Part shown: positions 1,270 through 36,221 of the stretch, one piece after another
How the letters are laid out: the number at the start of each line of letters is the position of its first letter
How positions within the stretch are numbered: the first letter of the stretch is position 1
From: a virus
Lineage: Duplodnaviria; Heunggongvirae; Uroviricota; Caudoviricetes
IMG/VR virus record: IMGVR_UViG_2534681703_000017
Length of the DNA: 36,962 bases
Reading direction: 5' to 3' (one strand)
Made by a program: the position numbers and the translations under genes
The notes under the pieces: generated by a model
The model's input: the letters and a program-made list of their open reading frames with translations, nothing else
Database searches by the model: none
Told to the model about the DNA's origin: nothing

Positions 1270-3312
1270 ATGTGGATTACAGCAAAAGAGTGTGCTGGCA
1301 TTGGAGGGCTACCAACACGTGAACACAATGTCAGAGCACGTCTAGATCGTGTAATTGAGAATAAACCTGAATTAAGGCGCAAGCGTGAAGGCACAAAAGC
1401 ATTCGAGTATCACATCGACTGCCTGCCCGCTGAAGCGGAGAAAGTTTTACGTAAGCGCCTGACCCATCAGGTCCTGGAAGATACGCAACTGCCCGCCGTG
1501 GTTGAGCAGAAGGCAGTTAAAAACGTTACCGTTCGCGATGAACTGGAGGTGATGGTCAAATGCCCGGAACTGGCATTACGCGAAGTTCAGGCACTGACTG
1601 ACAAGCAAAAAGCCATCGCAGATGCGCGGATATTGCTGGCTACCGAAGTGCATAAACTGCGTGAATACGCAGGAATGTCCAGGACGGCGGCGATAAAACA
1701 CATCGTTGATGGTATCCGGCAGGAGGCTTTGCCCGAGCGTGTTATTGTGGCAGGTAATACCGCCAATGCCCGACAGGGTAAGCGAACTGGCGTCAGTACA
1801 GGGAGTTTACAGGAATGGTATTCCGCCTGGCTGATGGCGCGCGGTGATGCCAATCAGTTACTGGCGTTACTGGCTCCCGGTCATCATAAGGGGACACCGT
1901 GGGAGCAGGTCTGGTGGTTGAGCGATTTCTTAATGTTCTATCGCTCATGGAAGCGCCCGACCGTTGAATATGCGTATCGCGAGTTTTCAGCCTGGTGGCA
2001 TGAAAAACACGCGAATGATGCGGGAATGCTGGCAGCACTGCCTTCAGTTCATGCAGTAAGACGGGTGTTAAGCAGCGTCCCGGTGATTGTTAAAGAGCGT
2101 TTCCGCTCCACCGGTTCAGCCTGGCGTTCGCTCAATCCCTTTGTGCGGCGCGACTGGACATCATTACCGGTTAATGCGGTATGGGTCGGGGATGGTCACT
2201 GTATGAAAATGACCGCGTTTAACCCCCTGACCGGCAATATTTTCCGGCCAGAAGTAACGCTGGTTATGGATGCGGGACAACGCTTTGTTGTGGGCTGGTC
2301 ACTGTCCCTGTCGGAGAACGTGATAGCCGTTGCTGATGCGTTACGTTACGGCATGGCGCAGCACGGGATACCGCTGGTTTATTACTCCGATAACGGGGGC
2401 GGTGAAAAAAACCGGGTGCTTGATGCCGATATTACCGGGATTCTGCCCCGGCTGGGTGTGGAACATCACACGGGGATACCAGGTAACCCGCAGGGGCGCG
2501 GGGTGATTGAAAGGCTTAATAAGGAAATTCCCCGGGATGTGGCCCTGAGTTTCCAGACGTACTGCTCAAAGGGAGCAGACAAGGAAACCGTAATGATGCA
2601 GCAACGGATTATGCAGTCAGCCATTAAGGCCACCCACAAAGGGAAAGAACTGACAAAACGGCAGGTTAAGGCGAGGGATGAAATCCCCACCTTTGAGCAG
2701 CTGATGGCAGCTATAGAGCTGGAGGTCAGACGCTATAACAACCGACCACACAGCAGCCTTCCCCGCAAAGAGGATGGCGAATATTACAGCCCGGCAGCGT
2801 ATCGCCGGAAACTGATAAAAGAGCAGAATGTTGAAATTGATTTCCTGTCGCCGGAAGAACTGCATGAAATGTTCAGACCGGAAGTGACGCGCAAAACATT
2901 TCGCGGGGAAATTCAGTTATTCAACAATATTTATTACTCGTATGAGCTGGCCGCAGAGCACGGGAATGAAGTCAGGGTCAGTTACGATATTCATGATGCA
3001 AACAGCGTCATTGTCCGGCGGGCTGATGGCTCTTATATCTGCGATGCCATCTGGAACGGTAACAAGGTTGATGCCTTCGCTAAACCAGTTATCGAACAAA
3101 AACTGGAGAAACGCGTCAGAGGCCGCATTGCACGGGCCACGCAGAAAATCGAAGAGGCTAAACGCGAGCTTACCCCGGCTATTACGCAGAAACCTGACTT
3201 TAATTTTGGATTTGGTCTGGAGCGCCCGGAGAAAAAGGATAAAGAAGAACTTTATTTATTTGCATCTGAACGCGAACGCAATTTAAAGAAAAACGGCACA
3301 AACAACCGTTAA
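1270..3312 (+). CDS. A: MuA-like DDE transposase
   Basis: 680 aa, position after ner and before a MuB-like ATPase; candidate DDE residues in VGDGHC, YYSDNGGG and GVIERLNKE contexts; N-terminal ...AKECAGIGGLP resembles the MuA N-terminus. Confidence 0.85.
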   Translation: MWITAKECAGIGGLPTREHNVRARLDRVIENKPELRRKREGTKAFEYHIDCLPAEAEKVLRKRLTHQVLEDTQLPAVVEQKAVKNVTVRDELEVMVKCPELALREVQALTDKQKAIADARILLATEVHKLREYAGMSRTAAIKHIVDGIRQEALPERVIVAGNTANARQGKRTGVSTGSLQEWYSAWLMARGDANQLLALLAPGHHKGTPWEQVWWLSDFLMFYRSWKRPTVEYAYREFSAWWHEKHANDAGMLAALPSVHAVRRVLSSVPVIVKERFRSTGSAWRSLNPFVRRDWTSLPVNAVWVGDGHCMKMTAFNPLTGNIFRPEVTLVMDAGQRFVVGWSLSLSENVIAVADALRYGMAQHGIPLVYYSDNGGGEKNRVLDADITGILPRLGVEHHTGIPGNPQGRGVIERLNKEIPRDVALSFQTYCSKGADKETVMMQQRIMQSAIKATHKGKELTKRQVKARDEIPTFEQLMAAIELEVRRYNNRPHSSLPRKEDGEYYSPAAYRRKLIKEQNVEIDFLSPEELHEMFRPEVTRKTFRGEIQLFNNIYYSYELAAEHGNEVRVSYDIHDANSVIVRRADGSYICDAIWNGNKVDAFAKPVIEQKLEKRVRGRIARATQKIEEAKRELTPAITQKPDFNFGFGLERPEKKDKEELYLFASERERNLKKNGTNNR

Positions 3313-3330: not shown

Positions 3331-4224
3331 ATGAGTTTAATTACGCAATTAAATGACGTAATGGCCCGTCGCGGCTATACGCAGACCCACGTCGCCCGTG
3401 CTATTGGTCGTAGCAGCGCCGTTATCAACCAGTATTTACAGGGTAAATATCAGGGCGATATGGCTGATATTGAAGAACGCATTTCTGCCTTCGTGACCCG
3501 TGAGCGGGAAAAGGAAAACAGCCGCCGTATTAAAGCAAAGTTTGTGACCACCGGTATGGCTGCCAAAGGACTGGAGGTGCTGGCCTACGCTCACCTGGAA
3601 TGTGAAATCTGTGTGCTGTATGGCGCGGCAGGTCTTGGCAAAACAATGATTCTGCGTGAATACGCCTCCAGAAACCGGGATGCGGTCCTGATTGAGGCTG
3701 ACCCGGGCTATACAGCCAGGACACTGCTTGAGGAGTTGTGCCGCCAGCTGGGGGTAAAGGTTCGCGGCAACATTCACGAACTGATTGATGCCTGTGTGCG
3801 CGAACTGCGTGATTCCGGTCGTCTGCTGATGGTGGACGAGGCTGAACTGCTCCCCTATCGCGCACTGGAGGTTCTGCGCCGTCTGCATGACAAAGCGGGT
3901 ATCGGGGTTGTCCTGGCGGGTATGCCTCGTCTTCTGATTAATCTCAAGGGGCGTCGTGGTGAATTTGCGCAGTTATACAGCCGCGTGGCGCTGGCGCTTA
4001 ACCTGGGCGACATGCTGGCGCAGGAAGATTTTAACCAGATAGCCACCGGGCTGATGCCGGAAGCAGCAGAACGGGAAATCAGCGAGGCGCTTTACGCACG
4101 CTCGCTGGGTAATGCCCGCCGCCTGTTCAAACTGGCGCGTGGTGTGTACCGGATTTGTGATATCAGCGATGCGCCGGTCAGTGTGCAGGCCATTGATAAA
4201 TTCGCAGAAATGTTAATTCACTGA
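3331..4224 (+). CDS. B: MuB-like AAA+ ATPase (transposition target protein)
   Basis: 297 aa directly downstream of the transposase; Walker A GAAGLGKT; Walker B-like LLMVDEAE. Confidence 0.8.
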   Translation: MSLITQLNDVMARRGYTQTHVARAIGRSSAVINQYLQGKYQGDMADIEERISAFVTREREKENSRRIKAKFVTTGMAAKGLEVLAYAHLECEICVLYGAAGLGKTMILREYASRNRDAVLIEADPGYTARTLLEELCRQLGVKVRGNIHELIDACVRELRDSGRLLMVDEAELLPYRALEVLRRLHDKAGIGVVLAGMPRLLINLKGRRGEFAQLYSRVALALNLGDMLAQEDFNQIATGLMPEAAEREISEALYARSLGNARRLFKLARGVYRICDISDAPVSVQAIDKFAEMLIH

Positions 4225-4463
4225 TGGAGAACAAGATGATGGACAAGCAGACCATTAACGCCGTCCGTTCCCGTGCCCGTGTGGCCATCCACACCACCGG
4301 CGGTCGCGTAACTGGGCAACATCACCGTTTACCTGTGGTTTATGCCTGCCCGCCCGTGGGCGGCCCTGTATGGCCGGTAACGGAAATCATCCAGACATTC
4401 AGCGGCCTGCGCCGCGTGGTGAAAACGTCCTGTATCGACGGCTGCACCGTCGTATGGCAATAA
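4224..4463 (+). CDS. Hypothetical early protein (79 aa)
   Basis: ORF in operon context; start overlaps the B stop (ATGA). No recognisable motif. Confidence 0.4.
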   Translation: MENKMMDKQTINAVRSRARVAIHTTGGRVTGQHHRLPVVYACPPVGGPVWPVTEIIQTFSGLRRVVKTSCIDGCTVVWQ

Positions 4464-4720: not shown

Positions 4721-5365
4721 ATGACGACTGAAAATAAAGTTAAGCAATACACGAAAACTCAAGCGCCTGAAGGTTACTGGGTGGATGCCCGTGGCGTAAT
4801 GACACCTGAAAGCCTTATCAAAGATATTGACCGCGACCGCGAGCAGCTGGTCGGTGAGCTTGTGGAGATGGTGATTACTGCCTCCGCCTCACTGCGGGAA
4901 CTGAAACTGCGTGCGTTTGGTGATATCCAGGCATTTATTGACCTGTCGGCAGAGAAATACGGTGCTGTGAAAGGCGGCAAAAAAGGGAATATCACGCTTT
5001 ACAGCTTTGACGGGCGTTACAAGATTCAGCGCGCCATGCAGGACCGTATCGCGTTTGATGAACGCATTCAGACCGCGAAGGCGCTGATTGACGACTGTCT
5101 GGCTGACTGGACGGAAGGTGCGCGCCCTGAAATTAAAGCCATCATCAGTGAGGCATTCAGCACGGACAAGGAAGGCAACATCAACACCGGGCGCGTTCTG
5201 GCCCTGCGTCGCCTCGAAATTGAGGACGAACGCTGGAATAACGCCATGTCGCTGATTGGTGAAGCCGTCCAGGTGATTGGCAGCAAGAGCTATATTCGTG
5301 TGTATGAGCGCGTTGGTGATTCTGATGAATACCGCGCAATCCCTCTTGATATTGCAGGGGTTTAA
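4721..5365 (+). CDS. DUF3164-like protein of Mu-like phages
   Basis: 214-aa ORF in the early region; overall resemblance to the DUF3164 family seen in Mu-like prophages (recollection, not searched). Confidence 0.5.
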   Translation: MTTENKVKQYTKTQAPEGYWVDARGVMTPESLIKDIDRDREQLVGELVEMVITASASLRELKLRAFGDIQAFIDLSAEKYGAVKGGKKGNITLYSFDGRYKIQRAMQDRIAFDERIQTAKALIDDCLADWTEGARPEIKAIISEAFSTDKEGNINTGRVLALRRLEIEDERWNNAMSLIGEAVQVIGSKSYIRVYERVGDSDEYRAIPLDIAGV

Positions 5366-5366
5366 T

Positions 5367-5600
5367 ATGCATCAGAATATCAAAGAGTACAGAGCCGGAA
5401 ATAGTTGCGCGGCGTATTCGCTGGGCGCGTCCAGAGCAGAACAACGCGGCGATTATGACGAGGCAGAAAAACTGTGGCGCAAGGCAGCGCAAAGCCCGTG
5501 TAGCACCCTGCGCCGCACCTGGGCTGAACATCGTGCGGAGTTCTGCGCTAACGCTCACCTGAAGGGATGGAGGCCACGCCATGAATGCGAAGAACTTTAA
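5367..5600 (+). CDS. Hypothetical protein (78 aa)
   Basis: ATG at 5367 one nt after the stop of the preceding gene; in frame with track ORF 5277..5600, whose upstream part overlaps the DUF3164 gene. Confidence 0.4.
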   Translation: MHQNIKEYRAGNSCAAYSLGASRAEQRGDYDEAEKLWRKAAQSPCSTLRRTWAEHRAEFCANAHLKGWRPRHECEEL

Positions 5601-5772
5601 TAAGTTATATCCGCTTGGTACTCGTTTCATGCACATTGCACATCAGGCGGTGCGTGGTGGGCGGGTGGTAAAAACTGTTGCACCGGCCAGAGATTTTAAA
5701 TGTGGTTGTGTGATTGAAATTAATGTCGAGCCTTATTTCGTAAAAGTCGAAACACTGAAAGCACCGCATTAA
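5581..5772 (+). CDS. Hypothetical protein (63 aa)
   Basis: Track ORF overlapping the end of the preceding gene; operon context only. Confidence 0.3.
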   Translation: MNAKNFNKLYPLGTRFMHIAHQAVRGGRVVKTVAPARDFKCGCVIEINVEPYFVKVETLKAPH

Positions 5773-5780
5773 TTTAATTT

Positions 5781-5848
5781 GTTTTTAATTGTTATTTAAA
5801 ACAGGCGTAAACCCGCCGGGGCTGGCTTACGCCTGAATCTGGAGGATT
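5781..5848 (+). repeat. Leader element copy 1: AT-rich block, hairpin GGCGTAA-N16-TTACGCC (5804-5833), then TGAATCTGGAGGATT carrying the RBS
   Basis: Near-identical ~65-bp element repeated at 6407-6472; each copy ends 6-10 nt before a start codon. Confidence 0.6.
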
Positions 5849-5853
5849 TGTAT

Positions 5854-6399
5854 ATGAAAGATAAAGTCTGGGATTTTATTGTTGCTCCTGAAGGTTTTGC
5901 CACCCGTTCATCTGAGAAGTTAACCAATGTAACGTTATGGGCATCATCATTGCTGGGCCATCTGGGAGCACCTGCCGATTTTATGTATGTGGTACTTGAT
6001 GCGCAGATTGCCGGAAATGCTGTGGCCAGTAATGGGGCTTATATTCAGGGGGATTTGTTCGCCATGATGGCGAATGACACAGCAGCGCTGTATATCGCCA
6101 CACGGAACATACTGACAAGAATATCCATGCTGTCTGACTGTAAGGATATGGAAGACCTCGCATACATCCTTGAAGATGATTTGCTCACTATTTCAGGTGT
6201 GCAGGAATCCCTCTCGCGTCAGTTGCGGTTTATTGAACTGATGGAGTCATATAAAGATAAGCCTGATTTTTTTCAGATTCGATTCAGCGGGATGGAACTG
6301 CTGGATAAATATTATCCGCTGGATTCGATTGCCCGTGATGTGAAGGCGTTCGTTAAGTCTGTTGGCCGCCATTACTGGAAAGCTGAACGTCGTAGTTAA
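5854..6399 (+). CDS. Hypothetical accessory early protein (181 aa)
   Basis: ATG at 5854 lies 8 nt after GGAGG (5841-5845); the track start at 5848 is a TTG in the same frame. No recognised domain. Confidence 0.5.
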   Translation: MKDKVWDFIVAPEGFATRSSEKLTNVTLWASSLLGHLGAPADFMYVVLDAQIAGNAVASNGAYIQGDLFAMMANDTAALYIATRNILTRISMLSDCKDMEDLAYILEDDLLTISGVQESLSRQLRFIELMESYKDKPDFFQIRFSGMELLDKYYPLDSIARDVKAFVKSVGRHYWKAERRS

Positions 6400-6406
6400 T
6401 AAGTCT

Positions 6407-6472
6407 GTTTTTAATTTTATTTGTATATGGCGTAAACCCGCCGGGGCTGGCTTACGCCTGAATCTGAGGGAT
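6407..6472 (+). repeat. Leader element copy 2: hairpin 6429-6458 plus TGAATCTGAGGGATT
   Basis: Second copy of the 5781-5848 element, immediately upstream of the gene at 6478. Confidence 0.6.
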
Positions 6473-6477
6473 TCATT

Positions 6478-7194
6478 ATGGAAAATAAAAGCAAATACAT
6501 CGCCAAAATTAAAAAGCTGTTACGCCTTGCCAGAGGAACATCAAGCCCGGAAGAAGCCGCTAACGCTATTGCAAAAGCCCAGGCTTATATGCGCCAGCAT
6601 GGCATCAGCGAAAACGACGCTGAATTGTTCGACATTCAGGAAGCTGCCAGCGCGGGTGCGCCGAGTGATGCCAGTACACCGCCGCGTTATATGCACATCC
6701 TGTGTGACCTGGTCTGTAAAGCCTTCGGTGTCGAGTGTTACATCTCCGGCGAATACCGGGCTTCTGGTTCACTCAAACGTTACGTTCGTTTTTATGGTCC
6801 TGACAGCCGCCCGGAAATTGCGGCATATGCGTTTGATGTGCTTTCCCGTCAGATGATGGCAGAGCGCAAGAAATATCAGGATAAACACTGCAAACGTTGC
6901 GGCCCGTCCACGCGGGTGGCCCGTGGCGACCAGTTCTGCGAAGGCTGGGTCTTTGGTGCCCGTGATGTCATTGCGGTGTATGACGTCTCCCCGGAAGAAA
7001 AAAGCCGCCTTGAGCTTTACAGAAAGAACCTGCACAGCACTAAGGGACTGCGCGACGGGGATATGCGCACAGCTAAAGCGTGCCGGGGTGCAGAGTTTGC
7101 CGCTACTGCCGGTTTTATCGCCGGGAAAAACGCCAGACTGCATCAGGGGGTTAATGGTCAGAGCAACAAAACGCTGGCACTGGGGAGGGTGTAA
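6478..7194 (+). CDS. DUF2786-like protein
   Basis: N-terminal KIKKLLRLARGTSSPEEAANAIAKAQAYM resembles the DUF2786 signature as remembered; Cys-containing C-terminal half (CKRCG...CEGW). Confidence 0.5.
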   Translation: MENKSKYIAKIKKLLRLARGTSSPEEAANAIAKAQAYMRQHGISENDAELFDIQEAASAGAPSDASTPPRYMHILCDLVCKAFGVECYISGEYRASGSLKRYVRFYGPDSRPEIAAYAFDVLSRQMMAERKKYQDKHCKRCGPSTRVARGDQFCEGWVFGARDVIAVYDVSPEEKSRLELYRKNLHSTKGLRDGDMRTAKACRGAEFAATAGFIAGKNARLHQGVNGQSNKTLALGRV

Positions 7195-7645: not shown

Positions 7646-7833
7646 GTAACGAGCACATCCATCATTATCAGCGTGATGGGTCAATTTTCATATGCCAGCG
7701 TTGCGGCACAGCAAAGCATCGTAATGGTAAATACTGGTGGGCCGGTCGCTATTCAGAATCTGAACCACCATGTGTTGATGATGTTGTGGGGCAGGATGCG
7801 TGGTTTGAAACTGCAAAAAGCGAGGAAGGATGA
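7642..7833 (+). CDS. Small CxxC-containing protein (63 aa), possible zinc ribbon
   Basis: CQRC motif plus a third Cys and several His; start overlaps the previous stop. Confidence 0.4.
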   Translation: MSNEHIHHYQRDGSIFICQRCGTAKHRNGKYWWAGRYSESEPPCVDDVVGQDAWFETAKSEEG

Positions 7834-7834
7834 G

Positions 7835-8023
7835 ATGAAAAACCGTAAGGCAAGACTGCTGATAGCAAAGCCCGGGCAGTGTATCCGTATCTCAAACAGG
7901 CTTGTTATTTACTATAGATATCTGGGTTTTAGGGGGGGTTCCTCTATTCGTTTTTACGGTGTCTGGCGGAGCAGAAGCGCGGCGCAAAACCGCTGGAGGA
8001 ATCACGGAGCAACAACACGATGA
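7835..8023 (+). CDS. Hypothetical small basic protein (62 aa)
   Basis: ATG at 7835 just after the previous stop and preceded by GGAAGGA; in frame with track ORF 7673..8023. Confidence 0.35.
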   Translation: MKNRKARLLIAKPGQCIRISNRLVIYYRYLGFRGGSSIRFYGVWRSRSAAQNRWRNHGATTR

Positions 8024-8825: not shown

Positions 8826-9192
8826 AGCCGGTCAGGCGTATCTGGGGTGGGATGATGCCCTTTATCGCCAGACGCTGGCCCGCCTGACCGGTAAAACCAG
8901 CACCACACGCTGCAATCTCGATGAACTGCGCATCATCCGGGAATACATGCACGAACAGGGATTCCCGCGCAAGGCACCCGCTGGTAAAGGTCGCCGCCCT
9001 CGTGTTGCAATGAGCAGAAAATCAGTATTATCCAAAATTGAAGCGTTGCTGGCTGATGCCGGTCGTTCCTGGGCGTATGTAGAAGGACTGGCATCTCACA
9101 TGTATAAGCAACATGTGATCGAATGGCTGACGGATGAACAGCTTTTTGGAGTGATGGTGGCGCTGGTTAAAGATTCAAGGAGACGTAAATGA
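8797..9192 (+). CDS. GemA-like (Mu gp16 family) protein
   Basis: ATG at 8797 preceded by GAGGA; LGWDDALYRQTLARLTGKTS...LRIIREYM resembles GemA/DUF1018 as remembered; the track ORF 8698..9192 extends upstream in the same frame. Confidence 0.5.
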   Translation: MLKKMIGAIKAGQAYLGWDDALYRQTLARLTGKTSTTRCNLDELRIIREYMHEQGFPRKAPAGKGRRPRVAMSRKSVLSKIEALLADAGRSWAYVEGLASHMYKQHVIEWLTDEQLFGVMVALVKDSRRRK

Positions 9193-9527
9193 AAAAACTG
9201 TTATTACTTATTCTGACTTTATGTTTTACAGGGATATCCCATGCTTCTGATTCAGAGGAAGATTTGATCAAAAAAACATTACAGGGCGATTATCAGGCAC
9301 AACGTAATCTGGCTTATTCATACATGAATGGCTGGGATGATATTTCAAAGGATACCATCAGAGGATGCGCTCTCAGGAAGGTTATTCTCTTAACACAAGC
9401 CCAAGCTGACATTGGCGATTATGGAAATGAAGCCATAGATTGTCGAAAAGTGCATCCAACAGATAACCAGAAAGTATGGGAGTATGTCAGAGGATACCTG
9501 GTGTTGATAAACGAGAATAAAAAATAA
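9189..9527 (+). CDS. Secreted (signal-peptide) protein, unknown function
   Basis: N-terminus MKKLLLLILTLCFTGISHA is a classic cleavable signal peptide; sits between the GemA-like and Mor/C-like genes. Confidence 0.5.
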   Translation: MKKLLLLILTLCFTGISHASDSEEDLIKKTLQGDYQAQRNLAYSYMNGWDDISKDTIRGCALRKVILLTQAQADIGDYGNEAIDCRKVHPTDNQKVWEYVRGYLVLINENKK

Positions 9528-9539
9528 TATGAATAACAA

Positions 9540-9563
9540 CCTTCGCAAACGCGGAGGTTTTTT
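9540..9563 (+). terminator. Putative intrinsic terminator: CCTTCGC-AAAC-GCGGAGG (one G-U pair) followed by TTTTTT
   Basis: Stem-loop and T-run read from sequence, directly downstream of the gene ending at 9527. Confidence 0.5.
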
Positions 9564-9569
9564 ATGGTC

Positions 9570-9597
9570 TGTACAGGCGATCATGTATGGCTATAAT
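9570..9597 (+). promoter_or_regulatory. Putative promoter with strong -10 (TATAAT 9592-9597) and weak -35 (TGTACA 9570-9575)
   Basis: Hexamers read from sequence, 16-nt spacer; placed between the terminator and the Mor/C-like gene. A poor -35 would fit an activator-dependent promoter. Confidence 0.35.
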
Positions 9598-33236: not shown

Positions 33237-36221
33237 ATGTCTGTATTAATTTCAGGTGCGCTGATTAATGGCGCTGGCGTTCCGATGGCGGAATGCAAAA
33301 TTTATTTAGATGCACTGGTTAATACCAGTGAAGTGGTTATTGAATCATTTGCGGTTATTGAAACCGATGCGGCGGGACAGTATGCCTTTGAAGCACAAAA
33401 AGGCAAATACACCGTACACATCAAGCAAAAGAACGGCCCTAAGTGCTGTGTGGGTGACATTTCGGTTTACGAAGATTCAAAGCCCGGCACGCTGAACGAC
33501 TTTCTGACTGCCCTTGATGAAGGCGATTTAAAGCCGGATGTAGTGAAACGCTTTGAGGAAATGGTGGCGCAGGCGCAGCAGAGCGCGGAAGCGGCAGCGA
33601 AAAGCGAACAACTGGCCGGGCAACACGTCGCTGATGCGCAGAAGATAAAGGCAGACTGTCAGACGCTGGCGGATAACGTAGCGCAGAACGCAGAAGACGT
33701 TGCTGAAGACAAAAAGCAGGTGGCGCTGCTGGCATCATCTGCCACACAGGATGCGGCCCGCGCAGAGCAGGCGGTCAAAGATGCCGACACGATAGTCCAG
33801 AAAGCGGTCGATAAACTCGGTGAAGCCGCAACGCTGAGCGGCGAGGCAAAGGCCAGTGCAGAAGCGGCAGCAAAAAGCGAGCAGGGCGCAAAACAGCACA
33901 GGGACGAGGCGCAACGGATAGTTGATGACCTGAAGGGAAGCAGTGCTTCCACGACAGAAAAAGGCCTGGTGCAACTCTGTAGTGATACGGACAACGACAG
34001 CGAAGAACTGGCAGCCACACCGAAGGCCGTCAAAACCGTCATGGACGAGACGAAAACAAAAGCGCCGCTGGACAGCCCGGCATTCACCGGCACGCCCACC
34101 ACACCAACCCCACCGGACGATGCTGCCGGTCTGGAAACAGCGAACGCGGCATTTGTCCGCAAACTGCTCGCTGCACTGGTTGACTCGTCACCGGAAGCCC
34201 TGGACACGCTGAACGAGCTGGCAGCGGCGCTGGGAAATGACCCGAATTTTGCGACGACAGTCACCAAAGCACTGGCAGGTAAACAGCCACTCAGTGACGT
34301 GTTAACCGCAATCAGTAATCTGGAAGAACGGGCAGATAATCTTCTGTGCTTTAATCAGGACGGAAATGCTTCACTGTCTCCACTGTCAGAAAAAGCCCGG
34401 TCACTGCTGGCACAGGCCACAGTGGAAGCTATGCGCAATGAGCTTGAGCTGAAAAGCGCAGCGGTAATGGATATTCAGACAGACATTCACGACAGCACGA
34501 AAGGCCGCATTGCGCTTCCCGGTGCGTATGGTTACGGAATGACGGACGCCGGAGCGCGTTCAATTATTGCCAGCGATATGGTGACTGTAGCCAGAACTGC
34601 GCACAACGTACATCCGGGACGGTATTACACCTTTTCCACGCAAACGGAAGAAACAACCGGGATAACAGAAATTATCTGGCTGGATAATGGCCGGGCCGAC
34701 AAAACCAGCCAGACAGCAACAAAGCTGGTTCTGTTTTTTGGAAAAGACGGACGGATTCTTATGACCGTTCGTGGCGATAATATCTCCGCCCCGGTCACCT
34801 GGACGAATCTGACGCCACAACTTGGCAATGCAGCACAGAAGGATGCGCAGGAGAATATTTACGACCGCACCGAAGGCCGTCTGGCGATTCCCGGCATGTT
34901 TGGATTCGGGAAAGTATTTTCCAGCGGCGACAGGACCGAGTTTAAAACAGAGGCCGATTTTCTCCGCTGGGTAAAAACGGCAAATCCCGGACGCTATGCC
35001 GTTTATGCAGATACAAATGCGGTAATACAGGGCGTGCTGTTCAAGGGTACCGTTGAAATTATCTGGCCGGAATCTCAACCCAGTCCCAATCCGGAATATG
35101 TGGCCAAAATCATTATTTTTTACGGTATTAACGGTCATATTTATTACAATCGCTACTGGACTACCGGAGATGGTTATCTGGTTGGCTGGGAAAACCTGAA
35201 GGTTGATGAGGCTTCACTCCGGGCACTGATTGAAACCCGCGCGCCACTGAACAGCCCGGCACTGACCGGAACGCCGTCCACGCCAACACCACAGGATGAT
35301 GCAGCAGGCACTGAAATAGCCAATGCGGCGTTTGTGCGCAAACTGCTCGCCGCACTGGTTGGCTCATCACCGGAAGCCCTGGACACGCTGAACGAGCTGG
35401 CAGCGGCACTGGGCAATGACCCGAACTTTGCGACAACCGTCACTAATGCACTGGCAGGTAAACAGCCGCTTAACGATACGTTAACCAGTATCAGCAAGGC
35501 AGGGGTGGGACAAAACTCTCTCCTTTATTTTGGTGATAACTTTAAAGCAAAAGCAATTCCATGCAGCAACAAGGCTCGCTCATTACTGGCACGAAACACG
35601 CCTGAATCCATGCGCGCGGAGCTTGAACTGAAAGCGGCTGCGACGATGGAACCCCAGACCGATATCCGTGACCGTACACCCGGCAGGCTGTCGCTACCGG
35701 GCGCTTTTGGCTTTGGTAAGGCATTCAGTAACACAGAAGCCCTGACATTTAACGGGCAGGCTGATTTTGCTGAATGGCTGAAGGAAGCCATGCCGGGGCG
35801 TTATGCGGTCAGTATTGCGGACTCTTCCACGCTGCTGGCTGGCACAACGAAATTTAACGGCATCATTGATGTGATGTGGTCACCCTTTGATAACGACGAG
35901 TCAGACACAGTGCGTAAATTCAAAACGCTGCTGTGTTTTAACCAGTATTACGAAGGTGAGCACAGTATTCATCGCCTGACTTACCGCTGGAGTGGAAACA
36001 ACTGGAATGCAACAGTAAGCCCCATTATTTACGACGGCGATTCGCTGGCCTTCCTGCTGTCCAGGACGGCGGGCTCAGGCTCATATTTCAAATACCCGGC
36101 AGTGGGTGTTCCAGTGCTGGCTGTTTATCGCGGAACAACTTTCGGGGATAAAGAAATCAATATTGGCCTGGGTGATGTGGTGCAGGGGTCACAACTGGGC
36201 GGAGTTAATCTTCGTGCTTAA
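33237..36221 (+). CDS. Side tail fiber protein, lambda Stf-like, with duplicated internal module
   Basis: N-terminus (ISGALINGAGVP...YEDSKPGTLNDFL) and the KGLVQL...LAATPKAVK...APLDSPA..GTP...LNELAAALGNDPNFATT..ALAGKQP block resemble lambdoid Stf as remembered; the block occurs twice. Confidence 0.75.
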   Translation: MSVLISGALINGAGVPMAECKIYLDALVNTSEVVIESFAVIETDAAGQYAFEAQKGKYTVHIKQKNGPKCCVGDISVYEDSKPGTLNDFLTALDEGDLKPDVVKRFEEMVAQAQQSAEAAAKSEQLAGQHVADAQKIKADCQTLADNVAQNAEDVAEDKKQVALLASSATQDAARAEQAVKDADTIVQKAVDKLGEAATLSGEAKASAEAAAKSEQGAKQHRDEAQRIVDDLKGSSASTTEKGLVQLCSDTDNDSEELAATPKAVKTVMDETKTKAPLDSPAFTGTPTTPTPPDDAAGLETANAAFVRKLLAALVDSSPEALDTLNELAAALGNDPNFATTVTKALAGKQPLSDVLTAISNLEERADNLLCFNQDGNASLSPLSEKARSLLAQATVEAMRNELELKSAAVMDIQTDIHDSTKGRIALPGAYGYGMTDAGARSIIASDMVTVARTAHNVHPGRYYTFSTQTEETTGITEIIWLDNGRADKTSQTATKLVLFFGKDGRILMTVRGDNISAPVTWTNLTPQLGNAAQKDAQENIYDRTEGRLAIPGMFGFGKVFSSGDRTEFKTEADFLRWVKTANPGRYAVYADTNAVIQGVLFKGTVEIIWPESQPSPNPEYVAKIIIFYGINGHIYYNRYWTTGDGYLVGWENLKVDEASLRALIETRAPLNSPALTGTPSTPTPQDDAAGTEIANAAFVRKLLAALVGSSPEALDTLNELAAALGNDPNFATTVTNALAGKQPLNDTLTSISKAGVGQNSLLYFGDNFKAKAIPCSNKARSLLARNTPESMRAELELKAAATMEPQTDIRDRTPGRLSLPGAFGFGKAFSNTEALTFNGQADFAEWLKEAMPGRYAVSIADSSTLLAGTTKFNGIIDVMWSPFDNDESDTVRKFKTLLCFNQYYEGEHSIHRLTYRWSGNNWNATVSPIIYDGDSLAFLLSRTAGSGSYFKYPAVGVPVLAVYRGTTFGDKEINIGLGDVVQGSQLGGVNLRA

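Follow-up and report, generated by a model that had tools for sequence, protein, structure and literature searches.

A conserved intergenic stem-loop in the early operon of Mu-family phages: a candidate punctuation module and cassette junction

Why should two adjacent genes of a phage early operon be preceded by nearly the same leader? The question is raised by the stretch of DNA that we call the window, the whole 36,962 nucleotides (nt) of IMG/VR record IMGVR_UViG_2534681703_000017, which is a Mu-like transposable prophage. A first-pass annotation of the window had pointed out a near-identical pair of leaders of about 65 bp, each with a hairpin set against the ribosome-binding site (RBS), and had offered three ideas for them: translational control of the kind that Com exerts on mom in Mu, a terminator-promoter unit, and the boundary of a small gene cassette. 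Our analysis indicates that the element occupies one fixed site in Mu-family phages, the border between conserved early genes (ner, A, B, kil, DUF3164 or gam, and others) and variable accessory genes, and that the leader is repeated in the window because the element is a junction at which small accessory genes are gained, lost and swapped. As to what it does, the account we tentatively favour, at a little less than even confidence, is that it serves as intergenic punctuation in the polycistronic early operon, at once an RNA stem-loop and a recombination patch, a mechanism that we infer from sequence.

The duplicated element and its cassettes

The core of the repeat is the 30-mer GGCGTAAACCCGCCGGGGCTGGCTTACGCC, which forms the hairpin and is found exactly twice in the window, on the plus strand in each case (5804-5833 and 6429-6458); by chance no copies of it would be expected, judging from 100 dinucleotide shuffles of the window. 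Each 30-mer opens an exact 38-nt repeat (5804-5841 and 6429-6466), itself nested in a longer one, and a repeat finder returns a single 66-nt family, 5783-5848 versus 6408-6473, with 85% identity at an offset of 625 nt, so that the claim of a near-identical leader pair is borne out. When the copies are aligned, the hairpin together with TGAATCTG is identical at 38/38 positions, the AT-rich tract on its 5′ side at about 75%, and the Shine-Dalgarno (SD) regions diverge.

In copy 1 the AT-rich tract runs from the stop codon of a 63-residue (aa) gene to the hairpin (5773-5803, plus strand) and contains the block TTTTTAATTGTTATTT; the hairpin itself, GGCGTAA-ACCCGCCGGGGCTGGC-TTACGCC (5804-5833), scores 62.6 bits with a covariance model trained on 22 variants and is the ancestral, syntenic copy; and the 3′ flank (5834-5853, plus strand) holds TGAAT at 5834-5838, the SD GGAGGA at 5841-5846 and the spacer of a 181-aa gene. 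Copy 2 repeats this layout on the same strand, with a diverged version of the AT-rich tract at 6400-6428, the same hairpin at 6429-6458 (66.3 bits), and a flank at 6459-6477 with TGAAT at 6459-6463 and the SD GAGGGA of a DUF2786 gene at 6466-6471. Each hairpin thus lies about 20 nt 5′ of a start codon (5854 and 6478); these two start codons, the 181-aa size and the DUF2786 assignment, to which DUF7168 can be added, had all been given correctly. From ner to position 7833 the genes abut or overlap save for two gaps, of 81 and 78 nt, and the element sits in both.

We traced the element through E. coli genomes, IMG/VR and protein anchors. The 1.8-kb region around it has no match, in near or distant DNA searches, among 50,697 phage records, and it matches 58 of 5,426 complete E. 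coli genomes; a 73-nt version of the element matches 88 places, confined to the same 58 carriers of the prophage region. Where these relatives are annotated, they differ by whole genes in the interval from the 63-aa gene to the DUF2786 gene. Strain 08-00022 (locus L004) lacks any gene there and carries a single element; in the window one gene lies between two elements; RM9088 (L001) holds both DUF7448 and the 181-aa gene, with three elements; and TUM1881 (L002) has a 177-aa homolog followed by an unrelated 121-aa gene. In L004 the single gap exactly joins the 5′ half of the first window copy, by way of the common core, to the 3′ half of the second, so that L004 amounts to the window less one repeat unit. 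The 181-aa gene is likewise missing from L135, L136 and L138, as it is from L004, and it has other partners in L001, L002, L125 and L132-134.

A census of 25 loci of the E. coli clade gives nine architectures built from four cassettes, with 0-2 cassettes per locus. In this clade the AT-rich tract and the hairpin segregate with the gene upstream of them (the copy-2 type of tract is invariably found 3′ of the 181-aa gene), whereas TGAAT and the SD segregate with the gene downstream, which places the joint at the stem's 3′ base. A hairpin of a second type, GGCGCAG-N10-CTGCGCC, behaves in the same manner, being the constant 3′ neighbour of DUF7448 whatever gene comes after. In L002 the unrelated 177-aa and 121-aa genes share a common leader and their first six codons, MKDKVW, and this shared stretch is a typical recombination joint. 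Independent arrays occur elsewhere: in L285 three copies, spaced 459 nt apart, enclose two other small genes, and L248 and L328 have two copies each. In the lineages with repeats, then, each accessory cassette (SD, open reading frame (ORF), stop codon, AT-rich tract, hairpin) is bracketed by the element and relatives differ by whole cassettes. Of the three original ideas, that of a small cassette boundary is therefore strongly supported, relatives differing by cassettes joined at the hairpin.

Some further features of these loci deserve record. The L285 cassette at 1990-2480 (minus strand of the locus) encodes a protein of about 120 aa with CPMCG...C...C motifs (MKTLTHEQYLALIYSQNVKRQDYAVICPMCGT...), which could be zinc-binding. 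RM9088 carries an IS1A at 1445-2142 of L001, in the early region, with the small genes that follow B on one side and DUF3164 on the other. The commonest E. coli variant (L244 3066-3440, which is E2348/69; also L003, L126-L131 and others) has, 3′ of the element, a plus-strand ORF of 60-66 aa with a good SD (MNIAKQKKFAREINL...); at the same locus PGAP calls an overlapping minus-strand gene of 72 aa, WP_000564495.1, directed at the hairpin. E2348/69, where the site is NC_011601.1 2721823-2721887, and E. coli tcmA_3 are lysogens of the window type.

Could the element then be a DNA site of dedicated cassette capture, as in integrons, with a hairpin extruded from single-stranded DNA and cut and joined at its 3′ base by a recombinase? 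Such a site would account for arrays of promoterless ORF-plus-hairpin units with a conserved hairpin base and variable loops, for junctions that fall exactly at the 3′ base of the stem, and for wobble pairs that do not clearly favour either strand. On the other hand, no integrase or candidate recombinase is annotated in the six annotated loci, inspection of the element finds no attC-like R''/R' core sites (RYYYAAC / GTTRRRY), and most phages have a single copy. Moreover, homologous or microhomology recombination over 10-65 nt of identity explains the junctions equally well, and we consider dedicated capture very improbable.

A fixed site in the early operon of Mu-family phages

A set of 80 loci was retrieved by the neighbouring DUF3164 protein only, blind to the hairpin. 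Nearly all of the diverged loci obtained in this way (61-75% protein identity) have GGCGTAA...TTACGCC in the first gap after the DUF3164-(ANR)-63-aa genes, and the genes that follow are mutually unrelated. In each diverged locus the covariance model detects a single copy, at this site every time, and among the DUF3164-fetched loci multiple copies occur only in the window's clade. The element is present at the syntenic site in genomes of Morganella morganii, Citrobacter murliniae and Cedecea neteri, and it is found as well in Klebsiella phage Kp4852-3. The first-pass annotation had held that absence from related phages would speak against its proposal; the opposite is seen, the element being nearly universal in relatives.

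Phage Mu itself has the element, at Mu positions 6326-6423, in the 98-nt gap between gam and gp11, which reads ...TTCTTTTAATTAT GGCGCGA TACGTCAGGAGATTGC TCGCGCC TGAAAC...GAGGA...ATG. Where Gam is at least 73% identical to that of Mu, all 31 of the 31 distinct post-gam sequences have a hairpin of the family, and differing genes follow. In more distant gam phages the same spot is occupied by other hairpins, some with a genuine U tract (L416, L419), or by no hairpin. In L416 and L419 (IMG/VR contigs, with Gam about 63% identical to that of Mu) the first 70 nt after gam contain GATGGCGTTAAAYCTAGCGCCATC within a longer stem that has an A tract on its 5′ side and TTTTTAT on its 3′ side, a canonical terminator-like arrangement that retains GGCG...CGCC and UAAAC. 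BcepMu has, between gp05 (DUF3164) and gp04 (HU-like; L241 3113-3175), an unrelated hairpin, CCGCGAG-CGT-CTCGCGG, about 20 nt before the next start codon: the architecture of the gap is alike and the sequence is different.

A loose DNA pattern for the stem, TTTTTAATT-N-CGCCTGAAT, gave mostly chance matches and was set aside. Hits to the stem pattern in metagenome-assembled genomes of Desulfobacterales (L149 3125-3161, L153 754-790, L160 3340-3376) look chance-like and yet have a common downstream sequence, TTTTTTGATTGTTGGAGTTT, which suggests an unrelated repeated hairpin element of those genomes.

What is conserved at this site is an AT-rich tract, a GGCG-YRR ... YYR-CGCC stem-loop, usually with a YCRGGG apical loop, and NNAAU on the 3′ side. 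Over 67 distinct loci, mean pairwise identity is 0.91-1.00 in the stem arms and 0.97, 0.83 and 0.81 at positions +3 to +5 (AAU), and decays downstream to the random value of 0.27; this conserved island followed by random sequence is what marks the element as the border between the conserved and the variable early operon. The AT-rich tract is homologous 5′ of the hairpin in all relatives, with a mean pairwise identity of 0.63 over its last 10 nt, and an AU-rich YTTTWAA box stands directly 5′ of the hairpin. Its orientation is sense throughout, and over 138 distinct instances an ORF begins at a median distance of 20 nt on its 3′ side (interquartile range (IQR) 18-22).

The helix is maintained by compensatory changes. 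Among 35 distinct hairpins the pairs 1-4 (GGCG/CGCC) are almost invariant, and pairs 5, 6 and 7 show double compensatory switches between hairpin types (UA to CG, AU to GC and AU to GC); of the pair cells of these hairpins, 238 are Watson-Crick, four are G.U and at most two are A.C. In an ungapped alignment of 28 sequences, the Mu clade among them, pairing holds in 97% of cells, four pairs have changes on both sides, and the covariation score is 0.29, against 0.157 ± 0.017 in shuffles (0/500), with slid controls at 0.10 or below. Since the loop varies from 10 to 17 nt across the family, the conserved arms point to a hairpin in single-stranded nucleic acid rather than to a dimeric or spaced site on duplex DNA.

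Folding the two window leaders in their context, a check proposed along with the original leader pair, predicts that the hairpin forms with a probability near 1 in both. In energy, however, the hairpin is unremarkable relative to shuffles (z = -1.4 to -2.4), and because stability does not by itself distinguish it, its importance rests on comparison and not on thermodynamics.

Might the element nonetheless be functionless, a passive intergenic remnant, or a boundary kept alike only by phages recombining through it? That stability is unexceptional, that independent compensatory events are few, and that mosaic junctions map to the element would all be in keeping with this. Yet the same site is kept across genera, from Mu to Morganella and Klebsiella, with flanking proteins 60-75% identical; the stem is conserved far above its flanks, with double compensatory changes that preserve the helix; and a gap of about 80 nt is always retained in operons that otherwise overlap and are tightly packed. 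We give the idea of a functionless boundary little credence.

Taken together, the syntenic position, the GGCG/CGCC helix with compensation, the 3′ NNAAU and the sense orientation about 20 nt before a start codon define a candidate RNA/DNA motif family new to Rfam, a conserved structured intergenic element of Mu-family phages. In Rfam 15 the best matches to window positions 5600-6600 score 13-26 bits against gathering thresholds of 40-105, so that no family is assigned, and resemblances to REP, 16S or 4.5S RNA fragments amounted only to short identities at chance level. We found no description of the hairpin in Mu or Mu-like phages in Rfam or in the open-access literature, outside which the older Mu literature lies.

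Possible roles of the hairpin

A terminator-promoter unit had been suggested, and it finds no support. Scans of both intergenic regions of the window, of Mu and of the diverged relative L190 give no sigma-70-like promoter at the element; nor is an intrinsic terminator called there, be it in the window, Mu or a diverged relative; and there is no plus-strand U tract to speak of, a T run of at least three within 8 nt of the 3′ side of the hairpin occurring in 4 of 75 elements.

Could the element instead work on the other strand, as an intrinsic terminator or insulator against antisense transcripts from the accessory region entering the transposition genes? The minus-strand hairpin is predicted to be the more stable one in 25 of 34 variants, a minus-strand T run of at least four follows the hairpin in 25 of 75 distinct elements (for example AUUUUUAAAG; UUUUAAAU for window copy 1), and the minus-strand 72-aa gene that PGAP places in the E2348/69-type variant is aimed at the element. 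On the other hand, two thirds of the elements, among them window copy 2 and Mu, want a usable minus-strand U tract, and the terminator scan calls none. The neighbouring genes lie almost all on the plus strand, the orientation relative to the downstream start codon is invariant, and the G.U variants of the basal stem, L182, Kp4852-3 and the type-2 hairpins acquire A.C mismatches on the minus strand. A leftward terminator therefore seems improbable to us.

A more serious competitor is that the element acts on translation initiation, the hairpin, its loop and NNAAU forming an operator for a putative RNA-binding protein, or else an RBS organiser or standby site. By analogy with Com, the T4 gp43 operator or the MS2 coat protein, it would then set the translation of whichever gene comes next. 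In favour of such a role, the distance from hairpin to start codon is constant before many unrelated downstream genes, conservation of sequence goes beyond structure in the basal stem, the loop and positions +3 to +5, and in copy 2 and some DUF2786 leaders the SD lies in a second mini-hairpin. A role linked to translation thus keeps some plausibility. However, in the E. coli clade the hairpin and AT-rich tract go with the upstream and not the downstream gene, the mini-hairpin around the SD is not a conserved feature, most start codons are accessible, no binder could be proposed (Com has no homolog in the window, and the neighbouring 63-aa protein has a low-confidence model and does not occur in Mu), and genome compaction combined with a common junction could explain the constant spacing. 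Overall we hold this account to be rather unlikely.

The specific comparison with Com and mom lacks support. In the flank of copy 2, TGAATCT/GGATTCA could pair as a 7-bp mini-hairpin with the SD partly in its loop, and the predicted probability that the AUG is unpaired is 0.91 for copy 1 and 0.51 for copy 2, so that start codons are largely unpaired; only some leaders hold such an SD mini-hairpin and most members of the family do without it. Com and Mom of Mu find no homolog in the window (tblastn, best E 0.5), which stops short of the right end of the prophage. Mu, a carrier of Com, has the hairpin in its early operon, in the gam|gp11 gap, far from com-mom.

Three other candidates were rejected. 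The 63-aa protein as an analogue of Com belongs to no Pfam family, its conserved Cys/His residues are lost in the Morganella and Klebsiella homologs, and it is not in Mu; its AlphaFold model reaches a pLDDT of only 63, which is low confidence. A CsrA site (GGA in the loop and GGA in the SD) fails as a general account: it fits Mu and a few variants, the window-type loop CCGGGGCU and many others having no GGA. A -1 frameshift at TTTAAAC after the stop codon would be out of frame, is too distant from the hairpin and does not occur in the window.

How, then, would a module that punctuates the operon work? The element lies within the long Pe transcript that is the Mu early operon (PMC3820752). On the plus-strand mRNA a stable stem-loop would delimit segments of the message, serving as a barrier against 3′-to-5′ decay, or as a processing boundary, for the segment upstream of it; as the hairpin belongs to the upstream gene, each cassette would supply its own. 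The RBS about 20 nt to the 3′ side would be kept in a constant, insulated context. At the DNA level, 30-65 nt of near-identity would form a patch of homology for the insertion, deletion and exchange of cassettes by recombination, and the duplication in the window would be the footprint of the acquisition of the 181-aa gene.

Several observations weigh against this account. The decay-barrier and insulator roles are ones that we infer. A plain barrier would not need the basal stem sequence, the YCRGGG loop or the 3′ AAU to be so strongly conserved, and their conservation hints at a specific binding partner; the conserved AT-rich tract of 30-45 nt is left unexplained by the model. High conservation could stem partly from frequent recombination and not from selection on function. 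The DUF3164 clade alone gives a weak covariation signal, because its stem scarcely varies, and the independent compensatory events are few, chiefly the Mu clade against the rest. Finally, the strand on which the structure matters is ambiguous, wobble pairs and minimum free energies giving conflicting signals: the greater predicted stability of the minus-strand RNA in 25 of 34 variants arises because conserved A.C and C.A mismatches turn into G.U, while the basal-stem wobble variants (four G.U against at most two A.C), L182 with three U.G pairs, Kp4852-3, the type-2 hairpins and several loop variants favour the plus strand.

A bolder extension of these considerations, which we think doubtful, is that in all Mu-family phages the hairpin is the recognition site of a putative phage or host factor that gates transcription, processing or translation on the way into the semi-essential accessory region. 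Its contacts would be the invariant GGCG/CGCC base, the YCRGGG loop and the 3′ NNAAU. If this were so, incoming accessory genes would have to bring or adopt the site in order to be expressed, and the element would be a portable signal of expression and capture, in role like nut sites or attC and in mechanism new.

Gene context and comparison with known systems

For orientation, the early region of the window comprises a repressor at 173-850 on the minus strand, followed by ner (989-1261), transposase A (1270-3312), the AAA ATPase B (3331-4224), a kil-like gene (4224-4463), DUF3164 (4721-5365), an ANR-family gene (5367-5600) and, as the final conserved early gene ahead of the element, the 63-aa gene (5581-5772, plus strand; phrog_5591, PHROG E=2e-41). 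The latter has 48 homolog clusters, in Enterobacteriaceae, and in DUF3164-type relatives it lies invariably immediately 5′ of the first element. The 181-aa accessory cassette gene (5854-6399, plus strand) belongs to phrog_7741 and to no Pfam family. The 238-aa DUF2786/DUF7168 gene (6478-7194, plus strand; phrog_421, PF10979 E=5e-13, PF23771 E=2e-29) opens the region after the cassette array.

Farther along, positions 7834-8019 are 186 nt with neither a convincing gene nor the element, where a G-rich hairpin, TAGGGGGGGTTCCTCTA, is followed by TTCGTTTTTA, a terminator-like arrangement on the plus strand. The stretch 9189-9597, between gemA-like and mor-like genes, could be a moron-type unit: it holds a 112-aa ORF with a signal-peptide-like N-terminus (MKKLLLLILTLCFTGISHA...) and, 3′ of it, a terminator-like hairpin with a T run (9538-9559) and a promoter-like site (9570-9597, 10/12 match). 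At 20541-20666 lie three coding repeats in tandem, each of 42 nt, made of ELAAQLDAERQKVS-like heptad-rich units. The 994-aa tail-fibre-like ORF (33237-36221) has a direct repeat, 34062-34318 and 35241-35497 (257 nt, 83% identity, 1179 nt apart), an internal duplication of a fibre segment that includes a SSPEALDTLNELAAALGNDPNFATTVT motif.

The long early operon of Mu, a model system, is usually drawn as one uninterrupted transcript (PMC3820752). A conserved hairpin that divides its transposition and DNA-end-protection genes from the semi-essential accessory genes, and that is common to Mu, prophages of E. coli, Morganella and others, and a Klebsiella phage, bears both on the separate expression of the two halves of the operon and on the exchange of small accessory genes in transposable phages. 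It is also an easily testable handle, Mu cts lysogens and mutants being standard tools. Accessory regions are often screened for anti-host and anti-defence functions, the cassette genes described here have no functional assignment, and the motif could be used as a landmark for accessory-gene cassettes in Mu-like prophages.

How does the element compare with systems already known? The PeSLs of T4-type phages are repeated stem-loop regulatory cassettes that flank small non-essential or ORFan genes in variable regions; they combine a strong sigma-70 promoter with an effective terminator, and their direct repeats are able to delete or circularise the intervening gene (Arbiol et al. 2010, PMC2839356; Comeau et al. 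2014, PMC4122927). As with PeSLs, short conserved repeats with a stem-loop are the places to which insertions, deletions and replacements between close relatives map. Unlike PeSLs, the element has no detected promoter or U tract, its units being promoterless parts of one long operon; it is usually a single copy at a fixed site, repeated in some lineages only, and both the phage family and the sequence are unrelated. With the Com-mom system of Mu it shares a hairpin just 5′ of the RBS in a Mu-type phage, and in copy 2 a small second stem touches the SD; homologs of Com and Mom are, however, missing from the window, conservation does not extend to the SD-occluding stem, and the downstream genes are many and unrelated.

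The likeness to integron cassettes lies in the arrays, in which every ORF is promoterless and has behind it an imperfect-palindrome hairpin whose ends are conserved, whose middle varies and at whose base the junctions fall; IntI, attI, a Pc promoter and the attC core-site consensus are all lacking, the cassettes are few (0-2), and most phages have one copy. The nut sites of lambda (boxA and boxB) and the RNase III sites of T7 early mRNA are hairpins between cistrons that act on the transcript, in antitermination and in processing. The element, too, is a conserved inter-cistron hairpin of a phage early operon, and its AU-rich YTTTWAA box loosely resembles boxA. In contrast to a nut site, by inspection it has no boxA consensus CGCTCTTA, and its stem is 7 bp plus an inner helix with an NGGG-type loop and not a GNRA-like pentaloop on a 5-bp stem; nor is an N-like protein identified, no search having been aimed at one. 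With a helix of 7 plus 2-5 bp, it is also far shorter than the T7 substrates of RNase III.

Repetitive extragenic palindromic (REP) and other intercistronic stem-loops, such as the REP between malE and malF, are barriers to 3′-to-5′ decay inside operons and give segmental mRNA stability. The element resembles them in being GC-rich, without a U tract, placed between cistrons and 3′ of genes that need expression; whereas REPs are borne by the host in hundreds of chromosomal copies and in both orientations, the element is found only in prophages (58/5426 E. coli genomes) and in a single orientation, and by this analogy a barrier function for it is putative. Claiming no new mechanism, we think the element best classed as a combination of known kinds, namely the operon-internal stem-loop and the repeated boundary cassette that underlies modular shuffling.

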